From a virus: 14,630 bases of DNA. This document shows, in pieces, positions 2,599 to 13,463 of the stretch. The stretch lies in UHGV virus genome UHGV-0081264; one strand, 5' to 3'. The translations under genes were made by a program, and so were the position numbers. The notes below the pieces were generated by a model. The model was not told where the DNA came from. It was given only the letters and a program-made list of their open reading frames with translations, and searched no databases. Each line of letters begins with the position of its first letter. Position 1 is the first letter of the stretch.

Positions 2599-2801
2599 AC
2601 GTAAAACCCTGCTGGCCCCCGGCGTCGTGATGTGGTGCCAACCTGAGATTCAAGGTCAGCAATATATTTTTTGAGATCGCTGACTGAAGTGGCTGTAAAT
2701 TCCACTCTTCGACCGTCTTTCTGTACCGTCGCCACGCGCTTTCCCATCATCAGGTCATGTAACGCAGCGCGCGCGGCATCCAGTTCAGTCTGTGTTGCCA
2801 T
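2595..2801 (-). CDS. W: Head-tail joining / head completion protein, lambda gpW-like
   Basis: 68-aa ORF, ...[43 protein letters not shown]...[10 protein letters not shown], same length and sequence pattern as lambda gpW. Start overlaps the A stop (TAATG); the 3' end overlaps B by 4 nt. Confidence 0.9.
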
Positions 2802-4723
2802 TATTCATCTCCAGATAATGCCCGCGCGTAATCCGCCAGGGTCTTGTTATTGTTACGGCTGCCTTCTTCCTCCAGCAGGCTGGCCAGAAGTGAATCAAGA
2901 TTTAGCTGCCAGCGGGATATGCTTATACGCAGCGCCGCCAGTGCATAAACAAAGCAATCGAGCGCCTCATTTCGTCGTTTTTTGCTGTCCCAGACGATCT
3001 TTTTCTTTCCGCCTACCCATTTTTCCACCTGCTCTTCAGCTGTTAGTTGTTGGGCCTCTGTTAGATCGTAGATTTCTGGGTTATTCGGGAAATGAACCGC
3101 TCCCGCCAGCGGCTCGTCTCTTTGCGCCACCAGCGTGAAACGGTTATAAATCTGCTCTTTTGCGGTGTCTGTTCCTACCTCTGTGAGGTAAACACCATTC
3201 TTGTTACGCTTGCGTGGCATGTTCGCCACTGGCTTTCCATAAACCGACGCCCCCTTTATAGGGATCACACGAAACAGACCGTGTTTTTTTGAGCGGTTGT
3301 AGACGATGGTGGGATCAATGCCGCCAATATCCCAGCAAGTGCGGGATATAACCATTTCGAGACCGTTCTGGCGCTTATACGTCCTGTTGATCGCTTCATC
3401 AACTCGAGCGAGAGTCGACTCATCATCATGACGACCCATAATGATAATTTTGTCGATAAGCCAGCTTTCCTCTCCCGGCCCCCATCCCCAAACACGCATT
3501 TCGTAACGGTCAAGCTGGGAGTCAATACCCGCTGTCAGATATGCCACTCGCTCCGGCACAGACGCTTCAAAGTGCTCTTTTCGTTCCGCTAAAACTTCAG
3601 CATCGGGTCGTTCACCTATTTTCGGTTCCCACGTTTCGCCCAGGGTCGTGTTAACGAAAGTTTTTCGCTTACCCGTATCACCTTTTGTTTTTATCCAGTC
3701 CTTGACGATCTGCACCCAGGTTGTGAACGGGCTATATGCGGTCCAGATGTGGAATGTAACGCTGTCAGGAGGTTCAATTTCGGTACCGGATGAAGAAAAC
3801 CAGTTAAGGCCGTCTCGTGTCCAGATACCTGTTTCATCACAAATATACCTGGCCTCCAGAAATTCCAGCTCCTGTTGTTTAATCACACAGGCATTGTGTT
3901 CACAGAGGTAGTAAACGCTGGCAGGTTCTCCCGGAGACCATTTGAAGCCAAATGGTGTCTCTTTATCACCGAATTTCAGATACTGCTCTTCCCCACAGTG
4001 TGGGCATGGAACATGGAACCGAAGAAAATGTTCAGACTCCTTAGCAGCTCTTTCTATCTGGCACGTACCTTTGACTTTCGGTGTAGATCCGCGAATGGAT
4101 TTCGGCCATACAGAACCCTCAATACGCTTATCACCCAGAAAGGTGGGAGAACCTTCTTTCTCGATGTCATCATCGAAAGCGGCGAGCTCGTCGTAGCCAG
4201 CCACATCAACTGATTTTTCACGGTAGTTTTTTGCAGCCTTACCGCCCAGGCACCAGAAACCACGACCATTCGAGAAACGCTTCATGCTCAGCGTATTGTC
4301 CCGGTGTTTTTTACCGTACCAGGGAGCAAGCGCCAGCAACGTCGGAATATCACGAATGGTCGGTTCTACATGAGACTTCATGAAGTTTTCAGCATCACCG
4401 TCGGTTGGTAACCATATTAGGGAGTTACGCTGTTTATGTTGGATGAAATATGCGTAAACGCCGAGCAACATTTTTGAGTAGCCGACACGAGCCGATTTAA
4501 CGACATTCACCTCGCGAATATAGTCATTACCCATCGCATTCATAATTGCACGCTGAAATGGCAGTGTTTCCCAGCGCCCTTCCTGGTAGGCAGACTCTTT
4601 CGGGAGATAATAATTCTCATCTGCCCATTCAACTGCTGTTTGCGGTTGCGGCCGGTACAGCGAACGTAACCCCGCCCGCGCAGAGTGCTGCAGCCCCTTA
4701 ACCTGACTGTTCGATATATTCAC
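2801..4723 (-). CDS. A: Terminase large subunit, lambda gpA-like
   Basis: 640-aa ORF with GTG start (GTGAATATATCG..., as I recall for lambda A). MNISNSQV...[36 protein letters not shown]... is collinear with lambda gpA. 5' end overlaps the Nu1 3' end. Confidence 0.95.
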
Positions 4724-5243
4724 TCAGCAACCCCGGTATCATTTCATCCAGCGCAGCTGCCTTGTTCATGGCCTTAATGATGTCCTTCTTGAGGAAATCA
4801 ATATGTCGGTTCTCCAGCTCCGGGAAGCGCCGCTGAACCGACAGAGGTATTCCATCGAGAATGCTGGCGATTTCTCCGGCTACCCGCGACAGCACGAACG
4901 TGCAGAATGCGGTCTCCACCACTTCAGCGGACTCTTTTGCATTTTTTAATTCCTGAGCGTCAGCCTGAGCTCGCGTAAGTCGGTGTCGCTCATATTCAAT
5001 CGTGCCAGGTTGAAGATCGGACTCAGAAGCGATACGGAGATCTTCAACTTCCTTCCGCAACTTTTCATTTTCTATAGCTGCATCGCGCGCACTGTACCAT
5101 TCGATTGCAGCAGCAGATTCAAAGAGAACCTCATTACCTTTGCCACCACCGCGGACAACCGGCATACCTTGCTCCTGCCAGTTCTGAATCGTTCGGACGC
5201 TTACCCCGAAAATTTCGGATAAGCGTTTTTTGTTAACCTCCAT
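4698..5243 (-). CDS. Nu1: Terminase small subunit, lambda Nu1-like
   Basis: 181-aa ORF with ATG start. MEVNKKRLSEIFGVSVRTIQNWQEQGMPV... carries the Nu1 winged-HTH N-terminus. Lies immediately downstream of cos on the minus strand. Confidence 0.95.
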   Translation of the reverse strand: MEVNKKRLSEIFGVSVRTIQNWQEQGMPVVRGGGKGNEVLFESAAAIEWYSARDAAIENEKLRKEVEDLRIASESDLQPGTIEYERHRLTRAQADAQELKNAKESAEVVETAFCTFVLSRVAGEIASILDGIPLSVQRRFPELENRHIDFLKKDIIKAMNKAAALDEMIPGLLSEYIEQSG

Positions 5244-5254
5244 GGCTTACTCCT

Positions 5255-5432
5255 GGCAAAAAACAGAGAAAGGAAACAATCAACGGTAAACTTCCGTTTT
5301 CCTTGCTCAGCATTTCCTTTCTGGAGAGAGGACGTTTTTAACAAAAACAATGAGTAAACAAGAAGAAGAACGGAAATGGCATAAACCAGAAAATTTTCAT
5401 AAATAGCGAGAATCTGCGCGGACGCCGCCCCG
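5255..5432. other. cos: cos site: cosB-like GGAAA-containing repeats (about 5262–5380) plus cosN (reverse complement of 5419..5430 is GGGCGGCGTCCG)
   Basis: Read on the minus strand, the region upstream of Nu1 aligns with the lambda left end as I recall it (GGGCGGCGACCT cohesive end, then ...CGCTATTTATGAAAATTTTC..., then R-site repeats). The 12-nt cohesive-end equivalent differs from lambda at two positions. Confidence 0.75.
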
Positions 5433-5531
5433 TAACAAGGCGGATCGCCGGAAAGGACCCGCAAATGATAATGATTATCATTTGCTGGAATGCGACTTGA
5501 TTCGCACCCATTTGGACGTCTAAACGTCCAT

Positions 5532-5999
5532 TCATCGCGACAGCGCTGACCATATCGTGCCACCTGGCCGAAGACTCTTCTTCAGTTCCTCGGACACAAC
5601 ATCTGAGATCGCTTTTACCATTTCAGGGGATAGCTTCACGCCGGTCTTAATTTCGGGACAGATGCCAACATTGATGGCATAGCCTTTTCGTGGGTCGTTC
5701 TCTATCCGGCCAAACTGAATATTTACAGAGCCACCAATATAACCACCAGCAGGAACACCAAAGCGCGTATTCACCAGGTGCTTAATGGCGAACTCCTGCC
5801 CTTCAGCGGTCAGGAAGGTGTAATAATTTTCCTTTTGATACTCCGTCGCGGTATGGCGTGTTTCAGCGAATCCCAGCTCTAGAAGCTCAGCAGCACCAGA
5901 TTTGGCTGGCAGATCACCAGACTGAAGCGCGCCACGGAAAAACAGCGCATACAGAACATCCGTCGCCGCGCCGGACAACGTGATAATTTTATGACCCAT
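5532..5999 (-). CDS. Hypothetical protein, 155 aa, cos-proximal accessory gene
   Basis: ATG start with an AAGGAA Shine-Dalgarno about 9 nt upstream. A 3' hairpin (5514..5529) follows 3 nt after the stop. I do not recognise the protein. Confidence 0.6.
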   Translation of the reverse strand: MGHKIITLSGAATDVLYALFFRGALQSGDLPAKSGAAELLELGFAETRHTATEYQKENYYTFLTAEGQEFAIKHLVNTRFGVPAGGYIGGSVNIQFGRIENDPRKGYAINVGICPEIKTGVKLSPEMVKAISDVVSEELKKSLRPGGTIWSALSR

Positions 6000-6018
6000 G
6001 ATTTATTTCCTTTTAGGC

Positions 6019-6072
6019 GTGAGCCTGTCGCACGGCAAAGCCGCCGAAAGTTAACGGTTTGCCCAGGCTCAC
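6019..6072 (-). promoter_or_regulatory. Nested inverted repeat in the leader of the 155-aa ORF (GTGAGCCTG ... CAGGCTCAC enclosing GGCAAA ... TTTGCC)
   Basis: Perfect 9-bp outer arms at 6019..6027 and 6064..6072, inner 6-bp arms at 6034..6039 and 6058..6063, about 20 nt upstream of the ORF's RBS. Either an RNA structure or a protein-binding palindrome. Confidence 0.35.
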
Positions 6073-6111
6073 AGCTGAAAGACTTTCTACGATGTGCGCG
6101 TGCGATGCGCA

Positions 6112-6134
6112 TAAAAAAGCCGCGTGATGGCGGC
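6112..6134 (-). terminator. Intrinsic terminator (minus strand)
   Basis: Minus-strand GCCGC-catcac-GCGGC hairpin followed by TTTTTTAT (plus-strand A6 at 6113..6118). Confidence 0.55.
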
Positions 6135-6264
6135 TACTGTTTGAATATCAGGGTGTTGTTTCGTCTTAACCCTGGTTAATGTAGGCATTCAGCCCGTCGG
6201 TGGTGGGACACTGGCGCACTTAATAAAGAGTAATGGCTGATTACCTCAGAATAAGGAATCAAAA

Positions 6265-6525
6265 ATGTCAGAAGGTTTTGGTTTAAAAGAAAAGGTTGAG
6301 CAGTTAGAAAAAGAATTAGCCGTACAAAAAATAGCAAATCAGCTTGCTTTTGGAGCACTAATTAAAGCAGTTAATGAGCTGTACCCGAACAAAGATTTAT
6401 ATGATGGGTTGACAAAATTTGTCCAGGAAAAACTTGATCCTGAACGTGTTAAAAACATCCCTAATCTTCACGAGGCCTTTCTAGAAGCTGCGAAAATACT
6501 GAGGACTGACGCATCTCCTGAATAA
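6265..6525 (+). CDS. Hypothetical small protein, 86 aa, plus strand
   Basis: ATG start with an AAGGAA Shine-Dalgarno 7 nt upstream, AT-rich, opposite orientation to the phage late operon. Its 3' end overlaps a minus-strand small ORF. Confidence 0.45.
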   Translation: MSEGFGLKEKVEQLEKELAVQKIANQLAFGALIKAVNELYPNKDLYDGLTKFVQEKLDPERVKNIPNLHEAFLEAAKILRTDASPE

Positions 6526-7019: not shown

Positions 7020-7748
7020 TCAGGCCGCCGCATAGAGCAATTTCATCTGCCCTTTCACCGGGAATGCCGACATGCAACGCGCTTCGAAATCACGATAATC
7101 AGAGCACCCATTGGCAATGCTGGTAACGGCAATGATCTGTCGCTCAACCAATGTCAGCGCGTCAGGTTTAAGGTGCTGATGGATTTTGTCTCCCGCAGCC
7201 AGCCGTCTTTTAACCTCTGCATATACTTCTGGTGGTAATACCTGGCCATATACCCACTTGGCACTGATCATCCCAAATAGTGCGGGGCGACGACCTGGTC
7301 GATGACGGGGCAGCCCTGACATTTTGAACATCGCAGAATAAAACGGATCGCTAAACCTCTTTTCCCATGGCTGAGATTTATCCAGAAGGAAAATAGCCTT
7401 TATTCTTTCATCGTCGATATGATGAACGGAACCCTGAATGATTGCGTCAATTTGCTCATCACACCAGATCTCAAAATCTACAGAAAGCCATCGAGCAAAT
7501 CTGACCGCCAGCTTTGGGTGAAGCCATGTTCCGCCGCCACGGTCTTTGCGAGCGCGGCTGGTTTTTACATATGTGATATTCCCATATCTACTCTTTAACG
7601 CCTCGATGTAACGGACAGTCTCAGGAAGCCTAAGCCACTGAGCCGGCTCCTTGTTGAACTTGTCAGCTGCCGCAGTCGCGTCAAACCAGCCATCGTCAGA
7701 AAAACGCATGGGATGGCCTTCGAAATCAATCGGGATGATATTGGACAT
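7020..7748 (-). CDS. KilA-N domain protein
   Basis: Likely start ATG at 7748 (MSNIIPIDFEGHPMRF...) with AAGGT about 7 nt upstream; the track extends to a GTG at 7823. The GGTWLHPKLAVRFARWLSVDFEIWCDEQI segment fits the KilA-N/APSES-type motif as I recall it. Confidence 0.7.
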   Translation of the reverse strand: MSNIIPIDFEGHPMRFSDDGWFDATAAADKFNKEPAQWLRLPETVRYIEALKSRYGNITYVKTSRARKDRGGGTWLHPKLAVRFARWLSVDFEIWCDEQIDAIIQGSVHHIDDERIKAIFLLDKSQPWEKRFSDPFYSAMFKMSGLPRHRPGRRPALFGMISAKWVYGQVLPPEVYAEVKRRLAAGDKIHQHLKPDALTLVERQIIAVTSIANGCSDYRDFEARCMSAFPVKGQMKLLYAAA

Positions 7749-7897
7749 CGTATTTACCTTTTTGGTGATATGAGCCAGTTCTCGCAGACATGGACAGCCC
7801 AAGAGCGGCACGATGTAAGCCACCGTCCTGTCTCTGTCTCATATCCCGAAAAGCTCTTGGTTGATATGCGCACGAGAATGCGCGGTTTACTGCGGAC

Positions 7898-7924
7898 ATA
7901 AAAAAGCCCCGCATAGGCGAGGCT
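7898..7924 (-). terminator. Intrinsic terminator (minus strand) just after the peptidase stop
   Basis: Minus-strand AGCCUCGCC-uaug-GCGGGGCU stem (one U·G wobble) followed by UUUUUUAUG. Confidence 0.6.
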
Positions 7925-7942: not shown

Positions 7943-8845
7943 TTAAGACTGGATATTCCAAATCATTGCGTTACCGTTATGATTTTCAATGATTTTTGCC
8001 AGTGGTGCTCCACCAAAAGAATGCATGTAGCTGTGATGTATAGTCAAAACCAAATCTTGAAGTACTTGATCACTTTCAAGTTCGGTAACATTCAACCCAA
8101 TTTTCTGCGCCTTATCAAAATGAATATGACGCGAGTGGGTATAGGTTGTGTGATGGTTGTTTAACTCTGAACAAACATGTGTTGCTTTTGATTCTGCCTC
8201 AGGATCATTATCAAACATGCCTGTCATAAGCCAATGCTTAACAATCTCATTTGCCCATTTGATTGCTTTCTCACACTCGCCGATGATCGTCGGGTTTAGC
8301 TTTTGAAGAATGAACTGCCACATCTGAACAGCTGCGGGATTTTGAAAAATTTCCGTCTGCGCACGATTCCATTCTTCAATGATGGCATGGGTGGAGAAAC
8401 CGTTGAACTGAGGATCAATTGGGCCAATGTTGGACTGTTTACCCATGATGATTTCATTGGCACAACATGCAAGCATAGTTCCGCAGGACATTGAAATCAT
8501 AGGAACAATTGCTCTGATGTTAGTTCCAAACTTCGACCTTAAGTAATGCCCGATTGATTCCAAAGCGGCAATATCACCACCTGGAGTATGAAGTATCAAA
8601 TCCAACCCTTTTGATACATCTAAACCATTGATGGCTGTCATCAACCCGTTCTTATCATCATCAGTCATCTGAGTAAGATGGCGTACTTCTGCACCACCAT
8701 GCTGTAACCACCCTGAGTAATATGTGATTACATTTCTTCCAGTATGATTCGAAAGTTGAGATAAGTATTTACGGCGAACCTCATCCATAGGACTTTTATG
8801 GGCGAGAGCCGTTATCTCGCCCAGTACGTCGCTCCAATTAGGCAT
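7943..8845 (-). CDS. ClpP/S49-fold serine peptidase, SDH-family-like, 300 aa
   Basis: ATG start 3 nt after the upstream ORF's stop (coupled). LILHTPGGDIAALESIG resembles the ClpP/SppA oxyanion-loop motif, and PMISMSCGTMLA resembles the nucleophile region. AT-rich relative to the head genes. Confidence 0.7.
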   Translation of the reverse strand: MPNWSDVLGEITALAHKSPMDEVRRKYLSQLSNHTGRNVITYYSGWLQHGGAEVRHLTQMTDDDKNGLMTAINGLDVSKGLDLILHTPGGDIAALESIGHYLRSKFGTNIRAIVPMISMSCGTMLACCANEIIMGKQSNIGPIDPQFNGFSTHAIIEEWNRAQTEIFQNPAAVQMWQFILQKLNPTIIGECEKAIKWANEIVKHWLMTGMFDNDPEAESKATHVCSELNNHHTTYTHSRHIHFDKAQKIGLNVTELESDQVLQDLVLTIHHSYMHSFGGAPLAKIIENHNGNAMIWNIQS

Positions 8846-8848
8846 AAA

Positions 8849-9049
8849 TCAGTACGTGTAAAGTTGATGACTTGTAGTTTGGTTTTGCTTCGATTGTGTA
8901 GCGGTACCTTGTGAGTACCAAACACCTGTGTTTCCACTCGTACTAGTTTGCTGTGCCATTACACGAGAAGCGAAGTTGTTAACAGTTTCACCAGTCAACA
9001 TTTCTGCCGGTTTGATATTGTAAACATCGTAGAACTCAGCTGGGGTCAT
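8849..9049 (-). CDS. Hypothetical small protein, 66 aa, first gene of the peptidase operon
   Basis: ATG start with GGAG about 8 nt upstream. Ser/Thr/Gln-rich. Its stop is 3 nt before the peptidase ATG. Confidence 0.55.
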   Translation of the reverse strand: MTPAEFYDVYNIKPAEMLTGETVNNFASRVMAQQTSTSGNTGVWYSQGTATQSKQNQTTSHQLYTY

Positions 9050-9419: not shown

Positions 9420-9956
9420 TCATTTTCGTAACTTCTCAATCTCTCGTATACCCGCCAGGTTATTGTTGCCCTTCTCAATAACAGCCAGCAAAGGTTCAAT
9501 CCAGAGGACGGCCTGGCAATACGTCATTGAGCTGGCGGCAGCGGTACTATCATCGGTTGCGTTAGTGTTCCCGGTATCGGGGTGCATTGCGCTGGCACGT
9601 AAACGGTACGCGTATTTGAGCAGCCCACCAGCGACATCAGCAGGAACAGGCAGATCACAGGTCTTTTCACGTCGGAGAATCTCCCGGTATTCGATGACAG
9701 TTTTCTCAGTACCGGCATCGATCAGCGAGTTAAGGCGGTTGGCGTTCTCTGCTATCTGGTTAAACCGATTGAAGTTGAAAGCCTGTGTAGTTATCACCGT
9801 CGCCTGCAGCGCGTTATCATTACGTAATACCCGATTCTCACTCTGTTCTGTTTCAAGAGCTGAGCGGCTACGAACCAGTAATACGCTAAGCACTGCAATA
9901 ATGATTACGACAGCCACCAGCAGAACCGCAACAATCGTAATTTTTCTGGGTTTCAT
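9420..9956 (-). CDS. Rz: i-spanin (Rz-like)
   Basis: ATG start overlapping the endolysin stop (TGATG). N-terminal transmembrane segment (KITIVAVLLVAVVIIIAVLSVLLV), then a charged, helix-rich periplasmic domain. An o-spanin ORF is embedded in the +1 frame. Confidence 0.8.
   Translation of the reverse strand: MKPRKITIVAVLLVAVVIIIAVLSVLLVRSRSALETEQSENRVLRNDNALQATVITTQAFNFNRFNQIAENANRLNSLIDAGTEKTVIEYREILRREKTCDLPVPADVAGGLLKYAYRLRASAMHPDTGNTNATDDSTAAASSMTYCQAVLWIEPLLAVIEKGNNNLAGIREIEKLRK
9524..9718 (-). CDS. Rz1: o-spanin (Rz1-like lipoprotein) embedded within Rz
   Basis: Entirely inside Rz in another frame. Lipobox LVGC followed by a Pro-rich tail (PIPGTLTQPMIVPLPPAQ). The true start may lie downstream of the ATG at 9718. 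Confidence 0.7.
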   Translation of the reverse strand: MPVLRKLSSNTGRFSDVKRPVICLFLLMSLVGCSNTRTVYVPAQCTPIPGTLTQPMIVPLPPAQ

Positions 9957-10528
9957 CAGAATACCCCCGGAACTGATACCGGAATGCCTGGGTTAAGCGG
10001 CCCGAGCCCATCACCAAGAACCTGAGGTTTTTCTGCCCACAGGCAAACTTCACGCTCAATCTCACGCCGGGTAATCAACCCTTTCCATTGCTTACCACCG
10101 GCATATGTCCATCGACGAAGCTGATCACATGCGCCTTTGATATCACCCTGGTTTATTTTGTAGAGAAGAGTGGAGGTTTTGAAATTGCCAGCACCGACGT
10201 TGTAGACAAACGAGTAAAGAGCGCCCCGAGTAGTTTCAGGGATCGGAACCTTGATGTACGGATTAATCTGCTGCGCTACGGTGGTGAGGTCTTTATTAAG
10301 TAACGCTCGACACTCTGCTTTGGTGTAGGTCTTGCCGAGGATAATATCTTTACCAGTATGGCCCCAGCATACAGTCCACACTCCAACAACATCCCGATAA
10401 GGCTGATAGCGTACACCTTCAAGGCCATCATTACCCGTTGGGCCAGTAATCAACGCCGCAGCGATAGCAATAGCGCCAGCGGGTATCGCTGCAATAACGC
10501 TATTCTTCAGCTTTGGTGACATTGCCAT
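9956..10528 (-). CDS. R: SAR endolysin (GH24, T4-type lysozyme fold)
   Basis: ATG start. Gly/Ala-rich weakly hydrophobic N-terminus ([22 protein letters not shown]) typical of a signal-anchor-release domain, followed by the E-x8-D-x5-T catalytic motif ([24 protein letters not shown]). Confidence 0.85.
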
Positions 10529-10778
10529 TAAGCCGGTCCTCCCTTTCCTTTTTCCTGTAATACCAATTCACTGCACAGGTGATTACAGTGCATGCGATAC
10601 CGACAATAATTGCCCAGTCGCTCAGGCTTAACCCTGCAATTCTGTCGGCCAACATCCAGGACACCTCTTTTGCTGTTTTAGCTGTTTCGGCATATGCCTT
10701 CGCTGATACACCGCAGCCGGTCAGCGTGGTTCCTGTTCCATATGAAAGTCTGCTGTAAATGGTGCTCATTCTGGTCAT
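10500..10778 (-). CDS. S: Class II holin, pinholin-like (phage 21 S-like), with dual-start motif
   Basis: Starts MTRMSTIY (Met1 and Met4). Two transmembrane segments; the C-terminal end ...[13 protein letters not shown] parallels S21 ...NLYFKIREDRRK as I recall it. Strong GGAGGTGAGG Shine-Dalgarno. 3' end overlaps the endolysin start. Confidence 0.8.
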
Positions 10779-10934: not shown

Positions 10935-11576
10935 TTAAAAGTTTAAAGGAACCATAAAGCTACCAGGCTCTGCACCAGCTTCTTTATTTATTTCTTTACG
11001 GATTACCTCATTAATCTGAAAAGCCTCATTGTATACTTTTTCTAAGTTAATTGACGCCTTCATATTATAGTATGTTTTTTCCTCACAAACATATAACCTT
11101 ATCGGATATGGCCTAGGGTTGATTGCCTTCCAGTGGGAGATCACAAAATTATAAACTGCAATACCATGACCTTTCATCTTCCCTGCTGTAACATCAATGT
11201 TTAGCTGATCTAAATACTCATCGAAGTGTTGCAAGGTGTTTCTCACCCTCACGGAATTAATTTCCTTAATTTCAATATCTTTTATTTTTTCTTGAAGGTA
11301 ATTACTTCGCTCAATATGCAATCTGAATTGTTCAGGGGATTCTTCCCTAGTCTGATTTTTAGGAACTGCGATTAGTTTCTTGACGTTAGCCGCATCTGAA
11401 AGAATACTATTTATTAATATATGAATATTGTAATCAATTTTAAAGTAGTAACCAGCATCAGGAAGTGGTGTCTCATGAAAGAGCTCTTCACAGCGTGTTT
11501 TTATCGAATGAGTTAACAACCATAATTCGTGCAAATAAATAAAATTAAGTTTCATTTGCTCAAAGGTTTTTGACAT
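10935..11576 (-). CDS. Hypothetical protein, 213 aa, AT-rich accessory gene between Q and the holin
   Basis: ATG start with GGAG about 9 nt upstream and its own terminator downstream. Strongly AT-rich, with Lys/Ile/Asn/Tyr-rich composition. I do not recognise the protein. Confidence 0.6.
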   Translation of the reverse strand: MSKTFEQMKLNFIYLHELWLLTHSIKTRCEELFHETPLPDAGYYFKIDYNIHILINSILSDAANVKKLIAVPKNQTREESPEQFRLHIERSNYLQEKIKDIEIKEINSVRVRNTLQHFDEYLDQLNIDVTAGKMKGHGIAVYNFVISHWKAINPRPYPIRLYVCEEKTYYNMKASINLEKVYNEAFQINEVIRKEINKEAGAEPGSFMVPLNF

Positions 11577-12773: not shown

Positions 12774-13463
12774 TTAATCCAGTTTTGCAATATTTTGGTG
12801 TGAATTTGTCGCCTTTTGTTGTGAACGTGATCGCGTTACTTGCAATAAAGCCTCGCTGTCGAGGCTCATGAAGATTCGCTTCATCTCCACCCAGCGGTCG
12901 GTAAACGTCTCTGACCAGTTCTTTGGTGTCACGCCCACCAATTCTGCCAGCGCCTGGTACTCGTATGTCTCACGCCCACCCAACCCCGCTTTCACATCCT
13001 GCGCCGCCAGCCAGATTAGCTTCTTCAGTCGCTCCATCGTTTTGCCTGCCACCCGCTTACCTTCCAGTTGCTGGCTGAACTCTGCCCACGCCCACTGGGT
13101 GATCGCCACCTGGTATTCGAAGCGGATATTCTCGCTGTAGTTCCACAGAAGCCATGCTTTCTGGTGGTCTTCAAGCGACAGCACCGCGCGGCGCCACGAT
13201 GCGGTCACAAACTCAACCGGCCCCACCAGCGCGATAGATGATCCCTTTGCGCGGGACTGGCTGCCGCTCATCGCCGGGCCGTCAGGGTTAACTTTCCGAC
13301 CAGTGACCGGGTCGGTGATTTTCTTCCTGCCCCGGCTGCGCGCCGTCGCGGTGAACTGCGCGTTTTCGGCGAAAGCTACCAGCTGCCCTTTCGTCGCCCC
13401 GCTGAGGTCTGCGGTCGCCACAATGAGCTGCTGACGTACGTATTCCAGTTGCTGACTGTTCAT
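12774..13463 (-). CDS. Putative late-gene antitermination protein Q (non-lambda type)
   Basis: 229-aa ORF, ATG start with GAAGGAAG Shine-Dalgarno. Sits between NinG and the lysis region where lambdoid phages carry Q. The sequence is unlike lambda Q, so the family assignment is by position and weak recollection. Confidence 0.5.
   Translation of the reverse strand: MNSQQLEYVRQQLIVATADLSGATKGQLVAFAENAQFTATARSRGRKKITDPVTGRKVNPDGPAMSGSQSRAKGSSIALVGPVEFVTASWRRAVLSLEDHQKAWLLWNYSENIRFEYQVAITQWAWAEFSQQLEGKRVAGKTMERLKKLIWLAAQDVKAGLGGRETYEYQALAELVGVTPKNWSETFTDRWVEMKRIFMSLDSEALLQVTRSRSQQKATNSHQNIAKLD

Follow-up and report, generated by a model that had tools for sequence, protein, structure and literature searches.

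The DNA examined in this study is a stretch of 14,630 nucleotides (nt) of the UHGV virus genome UHGV-0081264, the whole of which is referred to below as the window. The gene order obtained from PHROG matches identified the window as a lambdoid phage or prophage with its late operon on the minus strand, in which several accessory open reading frames (ORFs) lie between an Rz-like spanin gene and an ORF of 155 amino acids (aa), termed ORF155. The surroundings of ORF155 and its leader are 99% identical to those in phages mEp213, mEp043 and mEp237 and match phage phi80 in part. The subject of this report is the leader itself, which lies between an intrinsic terminator and the start of ORF155 and which, as judged from comparison of its homologues, is virtually certain to belong to a real family of structured cis-acting RNAs.

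Fold of the leader and its covariation

The leader upstream of ORF155 (copy A; Table 1) begins directly behind a terminator that has the features of an intrinsic one, namely a 6-base-pair (bp) stem with five G-C pairs, a 6-nt loop and the run TTTTTT. Past this site, the RNA is predicted to form a hairpin, P1, and a long hairpin, P2, composed of the helices P2a and P2b and preceded by the strand of a further helix, P0. Two pseudoknot helices complete the fold: PK1 joins the loop of P1 to a bulge between P2b and P2a, and PK2 joins the linker ahead of P0 to the apical loop of P2. The Shine-Dalgarno (SD) sequence is overlapped by the 3' strand of P0, and the ATG of ORF155 at 5999 lies downstream of it.

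The original prediction had drawn attention to a terminator, a nested perfect inverted repeat and a hairpin past the stop codon, and all of these are present on the minus strand. The outer arms of the repeat (6019-6027/6064-6072, GTGAGCCTG/CAGGCTCAC) and its inner arms (6034-6039/6058-6063) are each perfectly paired, as had been claimed; the repeat is not one continuous palindrome, being interrupted by a 6-nt bulge (6028-6033). The leader is indeed large, and it extends past the palindrome to take in P1 and the two pseudoknots. Moreover, the structure had been described as lying close to the ribosome-binding site (RBS), and the RNA was found to abut and partly contain it. The 156-nt leader of copy A folds with an energy of -51.4 kcal/mol (z = -2.4), a modestly unusual value that is suggestive rather than decisive, and in the thermodynamic ensemble the pairing of its SD sequence exceeds 90%. 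Both pseudoknots would add stability to the fold beyond that given by a model of nested helices only.

The fold was examined by covariation in a MAFFT alignment of 79 distinct family members (A1). RNAalifold independently recovered P1, P0, P2a and P2b from this alignment, and both pseudoknots came to light from reading of the sequence variants. When the six helices were scored on A1, 93.3% of the cells were paired, compared with 32-50% when the partners were slid against each other; 12 pairs were changed on both sides (two of the pairs in PK1 and five in PK2), and in 500 shuffles neither the observed covariation score nor the observed count of cells changed on both sides was ever reached. PK2 was 81.5% paired on the MAFFT columns, where loops of the GAGAG type fall out of register, and per-subtype parsing was used for it instead. 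Among 96 distinct elements, PK1 was UCGCAC/GUGCGA in 72, UCGUAC/GUACGA in nine and UCGCAU/AUGCGA in seven, with a G-U pair in four and a mismatch in only four.

Divergent subtypes were gathered from a genome scan and from searches with a covariance model (R1), and their strand order and pairing were verified by script. Hand parsing of 22 subtypes gave 15 different strand pairs for PK1, about 20 for PK2 and six for P0. Almost all of those for PK1 and PK2 are fully complementary (a wobble or mismatch occurs in two PK1 pairs and one PK2 pair), and the six of P0 all pair. The variants of P0 included CUUUU/AAAAG, CCUUA/UAAGG, CUUUA/UAAAG, CUUUC/GAAAG and CUUUG/CAAAG, and those of the P1 stem included GCGU/ACGC, GCGCC/GGCGC and GCGUC/GACGC. 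For PK2, the pairs GAAAG/CUUUC, GAGAG/CUCUC, AAGAG/CUCUU, CGAUA/UAUCG and UCGAGAG/CUCUCGG were seen, with UCAGAA/UUCUGA, CACAGAA/UUCUGUG, CCCAGA/UCUGGG, CCCGAG/CUCGGG, CGAGACA/UGUCUCG, CCACAGAG/CUCUGUGG, CCUGCAGA/UCUGCAGG and CGUCGA/UCGACG in the divergent subtypes. The divergent subtypes likewise had PK1 pairs of their own (UUCUCG/CGAGAA, CGCUC/GAGCG, CGCCC/GGGCG, UGCCC/GGGCA, GUGCC/GGCAC, UCACAC/GUGUGA, UCUCAC/GUGAGA and CCGCA/UGCGG). P2a occurred as GAUGACCCUUG/CAAGGUUCAUC, GGUGAGCCAG/CUGGCUCACC and GGUGAGCCUUA/UAAGGCUCACC, and P2b covaried strongly.

Crossing helices with compensatory changes, as found here, characterize a pseudoknotted RNA, and from these alignments the existence of the double-pseudoknot fold of the leader is considered near certain. 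The proposal that the leader is an element acting at the RNA level was thus strongly supported, its stems being both conserved and compensated in homologues. Furthermore, R1 scored copy A at 138 bits on the minus strand and at 20 bits on the plus strand, and 233 G-U cells were counted against 79 A-C cells, an asymmetry which indicated that the RNA strand is that of the late operon.

Three variant copies deserve mention. In loci L096 (1631-1739) and L106 (1015-1142), the element has no P1 and the terminator is fused straight to P0, and about 30 nt are inserted behind P1 in the copy of locus L126 (2040-2184). These may be decaying copies or natural tests of the necessity of P1 and PK1.

Table 1. 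Positions in the window of the two leader copies, their helices and the surrounding features.
Feature	Position	Strand	Details
Leader RNA copy A	6006-6111	minus	Entire conserved element, P1 to SD; covariance model R1, 138 bits
Intrinsic terminator before copy A	6112-6135	minus	Stem AGCCGC/GCGGCT 6135-6118, loop CAUCAC, T-run to 6113
P1 hairpin	6095-6111	minus	UGCGC/GCGCA, 7-nt loop AUCGCAC
PK1 5' strand	6105-6100	minus	UCGCAC, in P1 loop
PK1 3' strand	6033-6028	minus	GUGCGA, 6-nt bulge between P2b and P2a
PK2 5' strand	6083-6087	minus	GAAAG in linker, 1 nt 5' of P0; partner CUUUC 6050-6046
P0 5' strand, predicted to act as anti-SD	6075-6082	minus	UCUUUCAG; partner 6016-6009
P0 3' strand	6008-6016	minus	CUAAAAGG; overlaps SD AAGGA 6012-6008
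P2 hairpin	6018-6073	minus	P2a 6073-6064/6027-6018; P2b 6063-6053/6045-6034; PK2 3' strand in apical loop
Leader RNA copy B	7757-7883	minus	R1 27.3 bits, E = 3.8e-5 in the window, filters off
Terminator before copy B	7900-7924	minus	AGCCUCGC-CUAU-GCGGGGCU, then U-run; read from sequence
Copy B P1	7883-7868	minus	Helix checked by script
Copy B PK1	7878-7873 with 7784-7779	minus	UUCUCG/CGAGAA
Copy B PK2	7860-7854 with 7805-7799	minus	CCAAGAG/CUCUUGG
Copy B P0	7853-7846 with 7765-7758	minus	CUUUUCGG/CCAAAAAG
Copy B P2a	7845-7834 with 7778-7767	minus	Helix checked by script
Cargo of copy B	7020-7748	minus	242 aa; PHROG 1136 and 129; homologues annotated KilA-N (HK97 gp73)
ORF155, cargo of copy A	5532-5999	minus	ATG start, 155 aa, TGA 5534-5532
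Hairpin past ORF155 stop	5513-5530	minus	UGGACGU-UUAG-ACGUCCA, 7 bp, 4-nt loop, 1 nt after TGA
cos region	5420-5486	minus	cosQ/R4-like segment 5432-5486 and 12-nt cohesive end 5431-5420; phi80 right-end alignment
Endolysin	9956-10528	minus	PHROG match
Rz-like spanin	9420-9956	minus	PHROG match
Small terminase	4698-5243	minus	PHROG match
Large terminase	2801-4723	minus	PHROG match
Portal	1006-2598	minus	PHROG match

Distribution, genomic context and cargo

A BLAST search with the leader alone showed that the stretch 6006-6124 is 92-98% identical, and the element itself 92-100%, in phages which are unrelated elsewhere at these loci. The carriers at high identity included HK639, in which the element lies between a major tail gene and an unknown gene, mEp390, Fraca, FSL SP-016, AsXd-1 and several newly deposited coliphages, and in phages of Klebsiella and Enterobacter the element is 70-80% identical. 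The conserved block opens at ...GCGCAUCGCACGCGC, directly past the terminator, and closes at CUAAAAGGAAA; the homology runs from P1 to a few nt past AAAAGG, that is, right behind the SD sequence, and downstream of the SD sequence all differs.

The element was found in at least 120 IMG/VR contigs by an exact-pattern scan. In GTDB contigs, with one genome per species, a pattern that left the main hairpin unconstrained returned 47 true members, all of them in Enterobacterales (Enterobacter, Klebsiella, Citrobacter, Kosakonia, Kluyvera, Buttiauxella, Atlantibacter, Pantoea, Erwinia, Chimaeribacter and others), and two additional, evident chance matches. The element is carried by 122 of 5,426 complete Escherichia coli genomes and annotated in none of them. 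These carriers include DH5alpha, DH10B, NEB strains and Nissle 1917, and the copies in DH5alpha, DH10B and the NEB strains presumably come through the phi80 remnant. Lambda-like phages that carry the element include HK97, HK022 and phi80. Two records stand out by their host names, since MH178096 ('Aeromonas phage AsXd-1', L005) and OM284015 ('Elizabethkingia phage EKP1', L011) hold the enterobacterial element at 97% and 80% identity, in each case within a lambdoid or HK97-like late region, which may point to wrongly assigned hosts or to very recent transfer.

A search of the entire window with Rfam 15 (4,227 models) gave no match at the gathering thresholds. At E values of up to 10, the element was touched only by uxuA (17 bits against a threshold of 66.8), and isrK fell on the upstream terminator (17.6 against 50). 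Literature searches by text and by sequence string returned no description of the element, which could sit unnamed among the roughly 10,000 phage RNA candidates already listed (PMC10690425). It is, then, a widespread RNA that is absent from the databases and papers searched. The weak isrK match covers 6113-6193 on the minus strand (E = 0.35) and consists of a small hairpin, AUAUUCAAAC and the terminator. A motif resembling AUAUUCAAAC, namely CCUGAUAUUCA(A/G)ACAG, recurs 5' of the terminator in loci L024, L033, L115, L125 and L128, and the stretch may represent a short, terminated RNA, now diverged, that precedes the leader.

The window itself contains a second copy of the element (copy B), which R1 matched at 7754-7895 on the minus strand, 1.7 kb upstream of copy A. 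Compared with copy A, the sequence is changed in nearly every helix, and the pairing is kept in all of them, so that the architecture is the same. Its 3' end is AAAAAGG, 8 nt ahead of the ATG at 7748, and a terminator homologous to the one before it is annotated as 'terminator' in the mEp235 and HK75 records. The subtype of copy B is 96-98% identical to the copies in HK97 (upstream of gp73), HK022 and HK75, is also present in HK446 and mEp235, and reaches 83-87% identity in phages of Salmonella, Klebsiella and Erwinia; 91 phage records and 25 E. coli genomes were found to carry it. Some other loci hold two or three copies, one per gene. Locus L108 (IMGVR_UViG), for example, has three copies (8747-8886, 10609-10744 and 12956-13070) of three subtypes within 4.3 kb of one late region and forms an array of leader-cargo cassettes, with an ORF of its own behind each copy.

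The position of the element in the late operon is recurrent. A lysis gene lies upstream on the same strand in 99 of 116 evaluable loci and a major tail gene in 11, and in none of the 116 was a reference late gene on the opposite strand. A hairpin with a T-run adjoins P1 in 107 of 147 distinct upstream contexts, and in the rest an ORF ends there. The upstream terminator was rejected as a part of the element, given that its stems are unrelated from locus to locus and that it is missing in about 27% of the contexts. On the downstream side, the ATG follows 7-9 nt past the SD sequence (AAAGG) in 167 of 177 members, and the start codon is ATG in all.

The ORFs that come first behind the element group into at least 23 clusters. 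They encode the ORF155 mosaic family, some of whose proteins carry Phage_Tail_Tip or FN3 domains, as well as a 485-aa protein, an HNH endonuclease, KilA-N and Rha-like proteins, membrane proteins and small unknown proteins. With this range of cargo and with copy B 1.7 kb upstream, the leader is not specific to ORF155 or to cos. The 485-aa protein (L003, 2122-3579) has a weak glycosyltransferase-2 match below the Pfam cutoff; it lies directly behind the element or behind its first cargo in 40 of 92 evaluable loci (behind the first cargo in L004, L007, L008, L009 and others), and HK97-like late operons may thus often end in a shared accessory module of this kind. The mosaic proteins among the first cargo (L002, L004, L005, L008, L010 and ORF155) share a C-terminal tail, ...(K/R)PGG(I/L/T)(I/L)(W/Y), and, behind differing N-termini, contain segments of the tail-tip region of lambda J (PF09327, FN3). 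They look like shuffled receptor-binding-related modules that are coded outside the tail operon.

The covariation of P1 means that transcription must begin upstream of the element. In addition, no sigma-70-like promoter was found on the minus strand between 6260 and 6000, from the terminator to the ORF, in a search limited to the sigma-70 type. A promoter of the cassette's own was rejected for sigma-70 on these two grounds. A leader peptide was also considered and rejected: a frame of 77 codons across copy A opens with an ATG where the U-run meets P1, and a 38-aa coding sequence is given there in one phage record, but this ATG is missing in many members (TTGCGC, CCGCGC, AAGCGC), and the indels between subtypes are not multiples of three.

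A candidate translational gate and the rival explanations

We propose, with moderate confidence, that the element is a portable translational gate for late accessory genes. In this proposal, a structured cis-acting RNA of about 105-135 nt would be transcribed within the phage late operon by Q-type read-through of the upstream terminator, i.e., on antiterminated late transcripts. P0 is predicted to join the near-invariant CUUU(C) to AAAG(G) of the SD sequence, and therefore the folded RNA would hide the RBS of the following gene. The RNA together with its SD sequence forms a portable unit, which lies before many unrelated accessory genes of lambdoid and HK97-like phages, mostly past the lysis cassette and less often among the tail genes. 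Translation of the cargo would then be confined to late transcripts that read through the terminator, at a throttled level independent of context. Occlusion of the SD sequence would be the purpose of the fold, and the gate may be either constitutive, as an insulated throttle, or opened by a factor. As expected of an SD-sequestering leader, the SD sequence was found in a helix that is maintained by selection. Moreover, the spacing between the helices is tight (0-2 nt from PK2 to P0, 0-1 nt from PK1 to P2a and none from P2b to PK1), which suggests a compact body; in this geometry, PK2 and P2b (about 15-19 bp) may lie beside P0 and P2a (about 17-19 bp), hinged at the junction closed by PK1 and P1.

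Leaders with SD-sequestering pseudoknots that control the initiation of translation are known from preQ1-II, SAM-II, T4 gene 32 and Mu com-mom, and the element is like them in that its 3' strand includes or abuts the SD sequence. The leaders of T4 gene 32 and Mu com-mom belong to phage accessory or late genes. The element differs from all four in having no Rfam match, no conserved ligand pocket and no related cargo, and, to our knowledge, its architecture of pairing between the P1 loop and the bulge and between the linker and the apical loop is not that of any of them. The cassettes can also be compared with the morons of lambdoid phages (Juhala et al. 2000), which are extra, horizontally exchanged genes of the late region that are flanked by terminators and, in the classical form, carry their own promoter. 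Unlike in morons, the promoter space is here filled by a transcribed structured RNA with no sigma-70-like promoter, and cargo expression is therefore expected to depend on late read-through.

If the gate proposal is true, lambdoid phages own a standard RNA module that decides the translation of accessory genes and travels with the RBS and not with the gene. This would explain the safe expression of new cargo from a very strong late operon, and it would provide a sequence anchor for the modular exchange of accessory genes. A well-supported double-pseudoknot fold would then be added to the few cis-regulatory RNAs known from phages. The element is present in the tractable phages HK97, HK022, phi80 and mEp213 and, unannotated, in DH5alpha and DH10B; as a compact natural part, it could be of use in synthetic biology as an insulated translation gate.

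Several points weigh against this proposal. P0 is short and A-U rich, the 30S subunit could open it, and the occlusion may be mild. In the subtype of L128b and L108c, the 3' strand of P0 lies just upstream of the SD sequence and not on it. The fold is far more elaborate than masking of the SD sequence needs, which hints at an additional or different function, and PK2 and P0, so close to one another, may coexist in the two-stack geometry or alternate as a switch. Few unpaired nt are conserved, and no ligand pocket is therefore visible. Furthermore, the invariance of P2a and P0 in the main subtype was partly imposed by the search patterns. Less probably, the element is an active device, i.e., a double-pseudoknot switch responsive to a protein, an RNA or a ligand, or a self-processing insulator, and would represent a new class of switch or catalytic RNA. 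Such a device would be a universal plug-in controller for any recombined accessory gene and a natural, cargo-independent expression cassette.

The elaborateness of the fold beyond SD masking would also suit an element for RNA processing or stability, such as an RNase III or RNase E site, a self-cleaving ribozyme or a protective, cap-like insulator of the downstream cistron. The element lies between cistrons of a long polycistronic operon, behind a terminator hairpin that could stabilise the 3' end of the upstream fragment. Its stem of about 27 bp, formed by P0, P2a and P2b with an internal bulge, resembles phage RNase III substrates such as those of T7 and the lambda N leader, and its independence of the cargo suits an insulator, as a natural counterpart of synthetic 5' untranslated region insulators. 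The pairing of a hairpin loop with an internal loop recalls the pistol ribozyme, which is often found in phage-related DNA and in which a short 5' hairpin likewise has a loop that forms a 6-bp pseudoknot with the internal loop of the next hairpin. In pistol, however, the strand of the pseudoknot occupies the 5' side of the internal loop, and some 10 nt are invariant, whereas the 3' strand of PK1 is on the opposite, 3' side, a second pseudoknot is present and few unpaired bases are conserved. The Rfam ribozyme models, pistol included, gave no match to the element. With almost no conserved unpaired nt to form an active site and with a conservation that is architectural, a processing or stability element is considered unlikely, although it is the strongest of the rivals to the gate.

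A triggered switch, whether riboswitch-like or operated by a protein, appears rather improbable. Here the balance between PK2 and P0 would be shifted by a small molecule, by an RNA-binding protein of the phage or the host, or by an RNA acting in trans, and translation would be turned on at a given time or in a given host state. The fold is complex and highly conserved, and an SD helix 0-2 nt from a pseudoknot strand is typical of pseudoknot riboswitches that control the SD sequence. However, the cargo is functionally unrelated, which is atypical of metabolite riboswitches, and the nt of junctions and loops vary among the subtypes, so that no common pocket and no protein or RNA recognition sequence is visible. 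The upstream sequences that could code for a trans-acting RNA vary as well.

On functional grounds, the nearest analogue of the element is the leader of isrK-orf45-anrP in the Salmonella prophage Gifsy-1 (Hershko-Shalev et al. 2016). There, transcripts that read through the IsrK terminator are translationally silent by sequestration of the RBS until the short IsrK acts in trans, a precedent for the activation of a silent read-through leader by a trans RNA (PMC4825925). The two are alike in that a prophage late-region leader, made by read-through, lies right behind an intrinsic terminator with its RBS sequestered, and in that the following gene, the antirepressor-like anrP, is comparable to the KilA-N cargo of copy B. 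They differ in that isrK uses a long-range helix, a short RNA in trans and an upstream ORF, whereas the element is a self-contained double pseudoknot with diverse cargo and no evident trans RNA. Gifsy-1 has no homologue of the element, as R1 with its filters off found nothing above 12.5 bits there, which further speaks against a switch of the isrK kind. Homology to isrK/orf45 was rejected, the sequences being unrelated, and Gifsy-1 is retained as a functional analogue only.

It is very unlikely that the element acts on transcription, as an attenuator or as a put-like antiterminator RNA that would modify RNA polymerase to read through downstream terminators. An intrinsic terminator often adjoins the element, as described above, and the element is present in HK022 and HK639, which are known for RNA-mediated antitermination. 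However, the terminator is upstream of the RNA and hence beyond its control, and there is no terminator-like site from the leader to the ORF. A second match to the terminator consensus on the minus strand (5980-5961) is inside ORF155, 20 nt past the ATG, and has the weak tail GATGTTCTGT. Put sites follow the early PL and PR promoters and consist of two stem-loops that act on RNA polymerase. The HK022 copy occupies positions 38,517-38,692 of 40,751, within the late region and ahead of a homologue of the gp73-type KilA-N gene, and this location does not fit an element of the HK022 put type. Moreover, cos and the terminase genes follow ORF155 with no terminator in between, and the 3' edge of the element coincides exactly with the SD sequence.

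An RNA thermometer, in which the U-rich strand of P0 would melt off the SD sequence at host temperature, is also very unlikely. The pairing of CUUU/CUUUU with AAAG/AAAAG of the SD sequence is like that of fourU elements, in which a U run lies on the purine core of the SD sequence. The helix here differs in being set within a fold of about 110 nt with two pseudoknots, a complexity that a thermometer would not need, and no melting is predicted over the range of 20 to 45 °C. For copy A, a model restricted to nested helices gave the GG of the SD sequence an unpaired probability of 0.02-0.04 at 20 °C and of 0.05-0.15 at 45 °C, i.e., it stays at least 85% paired, and the two pseudoknots would stabilise the fold further. 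Least probable of all, and largely refuted, is an element acting in DNA, as a protein-binding palindrome or a recombination site at cassette boundaries with no RNA function. In its favour, an imperfect palindrome does lie at the junction of conserved and variable DNA, and the near-identity of the element in otherwise unrelated phages would promote exchange of the downstream cargo by homologous recombination. However, covarying pseudoknots are impossible in double-stranded DNA, G-U pairs become C-A mismatches on the other strand, R1 scores one strand far above the other, and a role as a recombination anchor, a possible by-product, cannot explain the compensatory changes. Of the mechanisms suggested for the leader in the original prediction, an RNase site is conceivable, the attenuator is unlikely, and the thermosensor and the protein-binding palindrome are both disfavoured.

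ORF155, its 3' hairpin and the cos region

ORF155 belongs to a mosaic family with a conserved N-domain (residues 1-83), interchangeable middle modules and a conserved C-terminal helix that ends in PGGxIW; in ORF155 itself the middle part is short and the C-terminal motif reads ...RPGGTIW. The protein had not been recognised from its sequence, and this stands after a profile search, in which no Pfam family was matched at E values of up to 1. Its PHROG matches are of unknown function only, and a sequence search of the PDB gave no significant match. Its 458 homologues are named 'hypothetical', 'Fur-regulated protein', 'phage tail tip fiber protein' or DUF1983, and the phi80 counterpart, PHI80_66, is annotated as 'similar to N15 gp59'. 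The family PF09327 (Phage_Tail_Tip/DUF1983) is matched by longer relatives and by other cargo proteins and not by ORF155, which has only the N-domain and the C-terminal PGGxIW tail in common with those relatives.

In an AlphaFold2 model of ORF155, the N-domain was modelled as a winged helix (predicted local distance difference test score, pLDDT, about 70-79 over residues 10-79), and the rest was poor (mean pLDDT 59.7). The top Foldseek matches of the model were to the MarR family, with E values of about 1e-2 and TM scores of 0.35-0.5 over roughly 75-80 residues; with no Pfam match to MarR, this likeness is one of fold only. The N-domain is thus a probable winged helix according to the model. 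ORF155 may be a late-expressed accessory protein with the winged-helix domain as a common binding module, which we put forward as a low-confidence guess.

The hairpin past the stop codon of ORF155 had been listed as flanking the gene, and no comparative support was found for it as a part of the system. Its arms (5513-5519/5524-5530) are identical in mEp213 and kept only in near-identical relatives, it is absent from phi80, where the end of the gene differs, and a rough estimate puts the number of 7-bp stems to be expected in 900 nt at about 0.3. It has no U-run, was not called as a terminator and was rejected as a functional element. This lack of terminator features fits the need for late transcription to cross cos.

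Alignment with the annotated right end of phi80 placed the cos nick between 5432 and 5431, and ORF155 is therefore the final gene ahead of cos, which bore out its description as the last gene before this site. The predicted 12-nt cohesive end (5420-5431, minus strand) is GGGCGGCGTCCG, which differs at two positions from that of phi80, GGGCGGCGACCT; that of mEp213 differs again.

Two further ORFs lie near the genes considered here. An ORF of 213 aa (10935-11576, minus strand), upstream of the holin and endolysin genes, has the position expected of a Q-type antiterminator, and no PHROG match to it was found at 1e-5. An ORF of 86 aa (6265-6525, plus strand) matches phrog_21164, a group of unknown function. 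It is antisense to the late operon and occupies the interval that separates the accessory genes from the terminator of copy A. Its position recalls that of bor in lambda, and it is annotated as hypothetical in mEp213.

Finally, the cosQ/R4-like segment contains, at 5466-5480 on the plus strand, the sequence TGATAATGATTATCA, a perfect match to the 7-1-7 Fur-box consensus TGATAATNATTATCA. The Rfam PrrF model, which has a Fur box at its 5' end, was aligned to this site, and the same 15-mer is presumably also present in the right end of lambda. The match may explain why neighbouring genes in phi80 and in many prophages (ORFs x171.8 and x171.28) bear the name 'Fur-regulated protein', perhaps through a Fur-titration clone.

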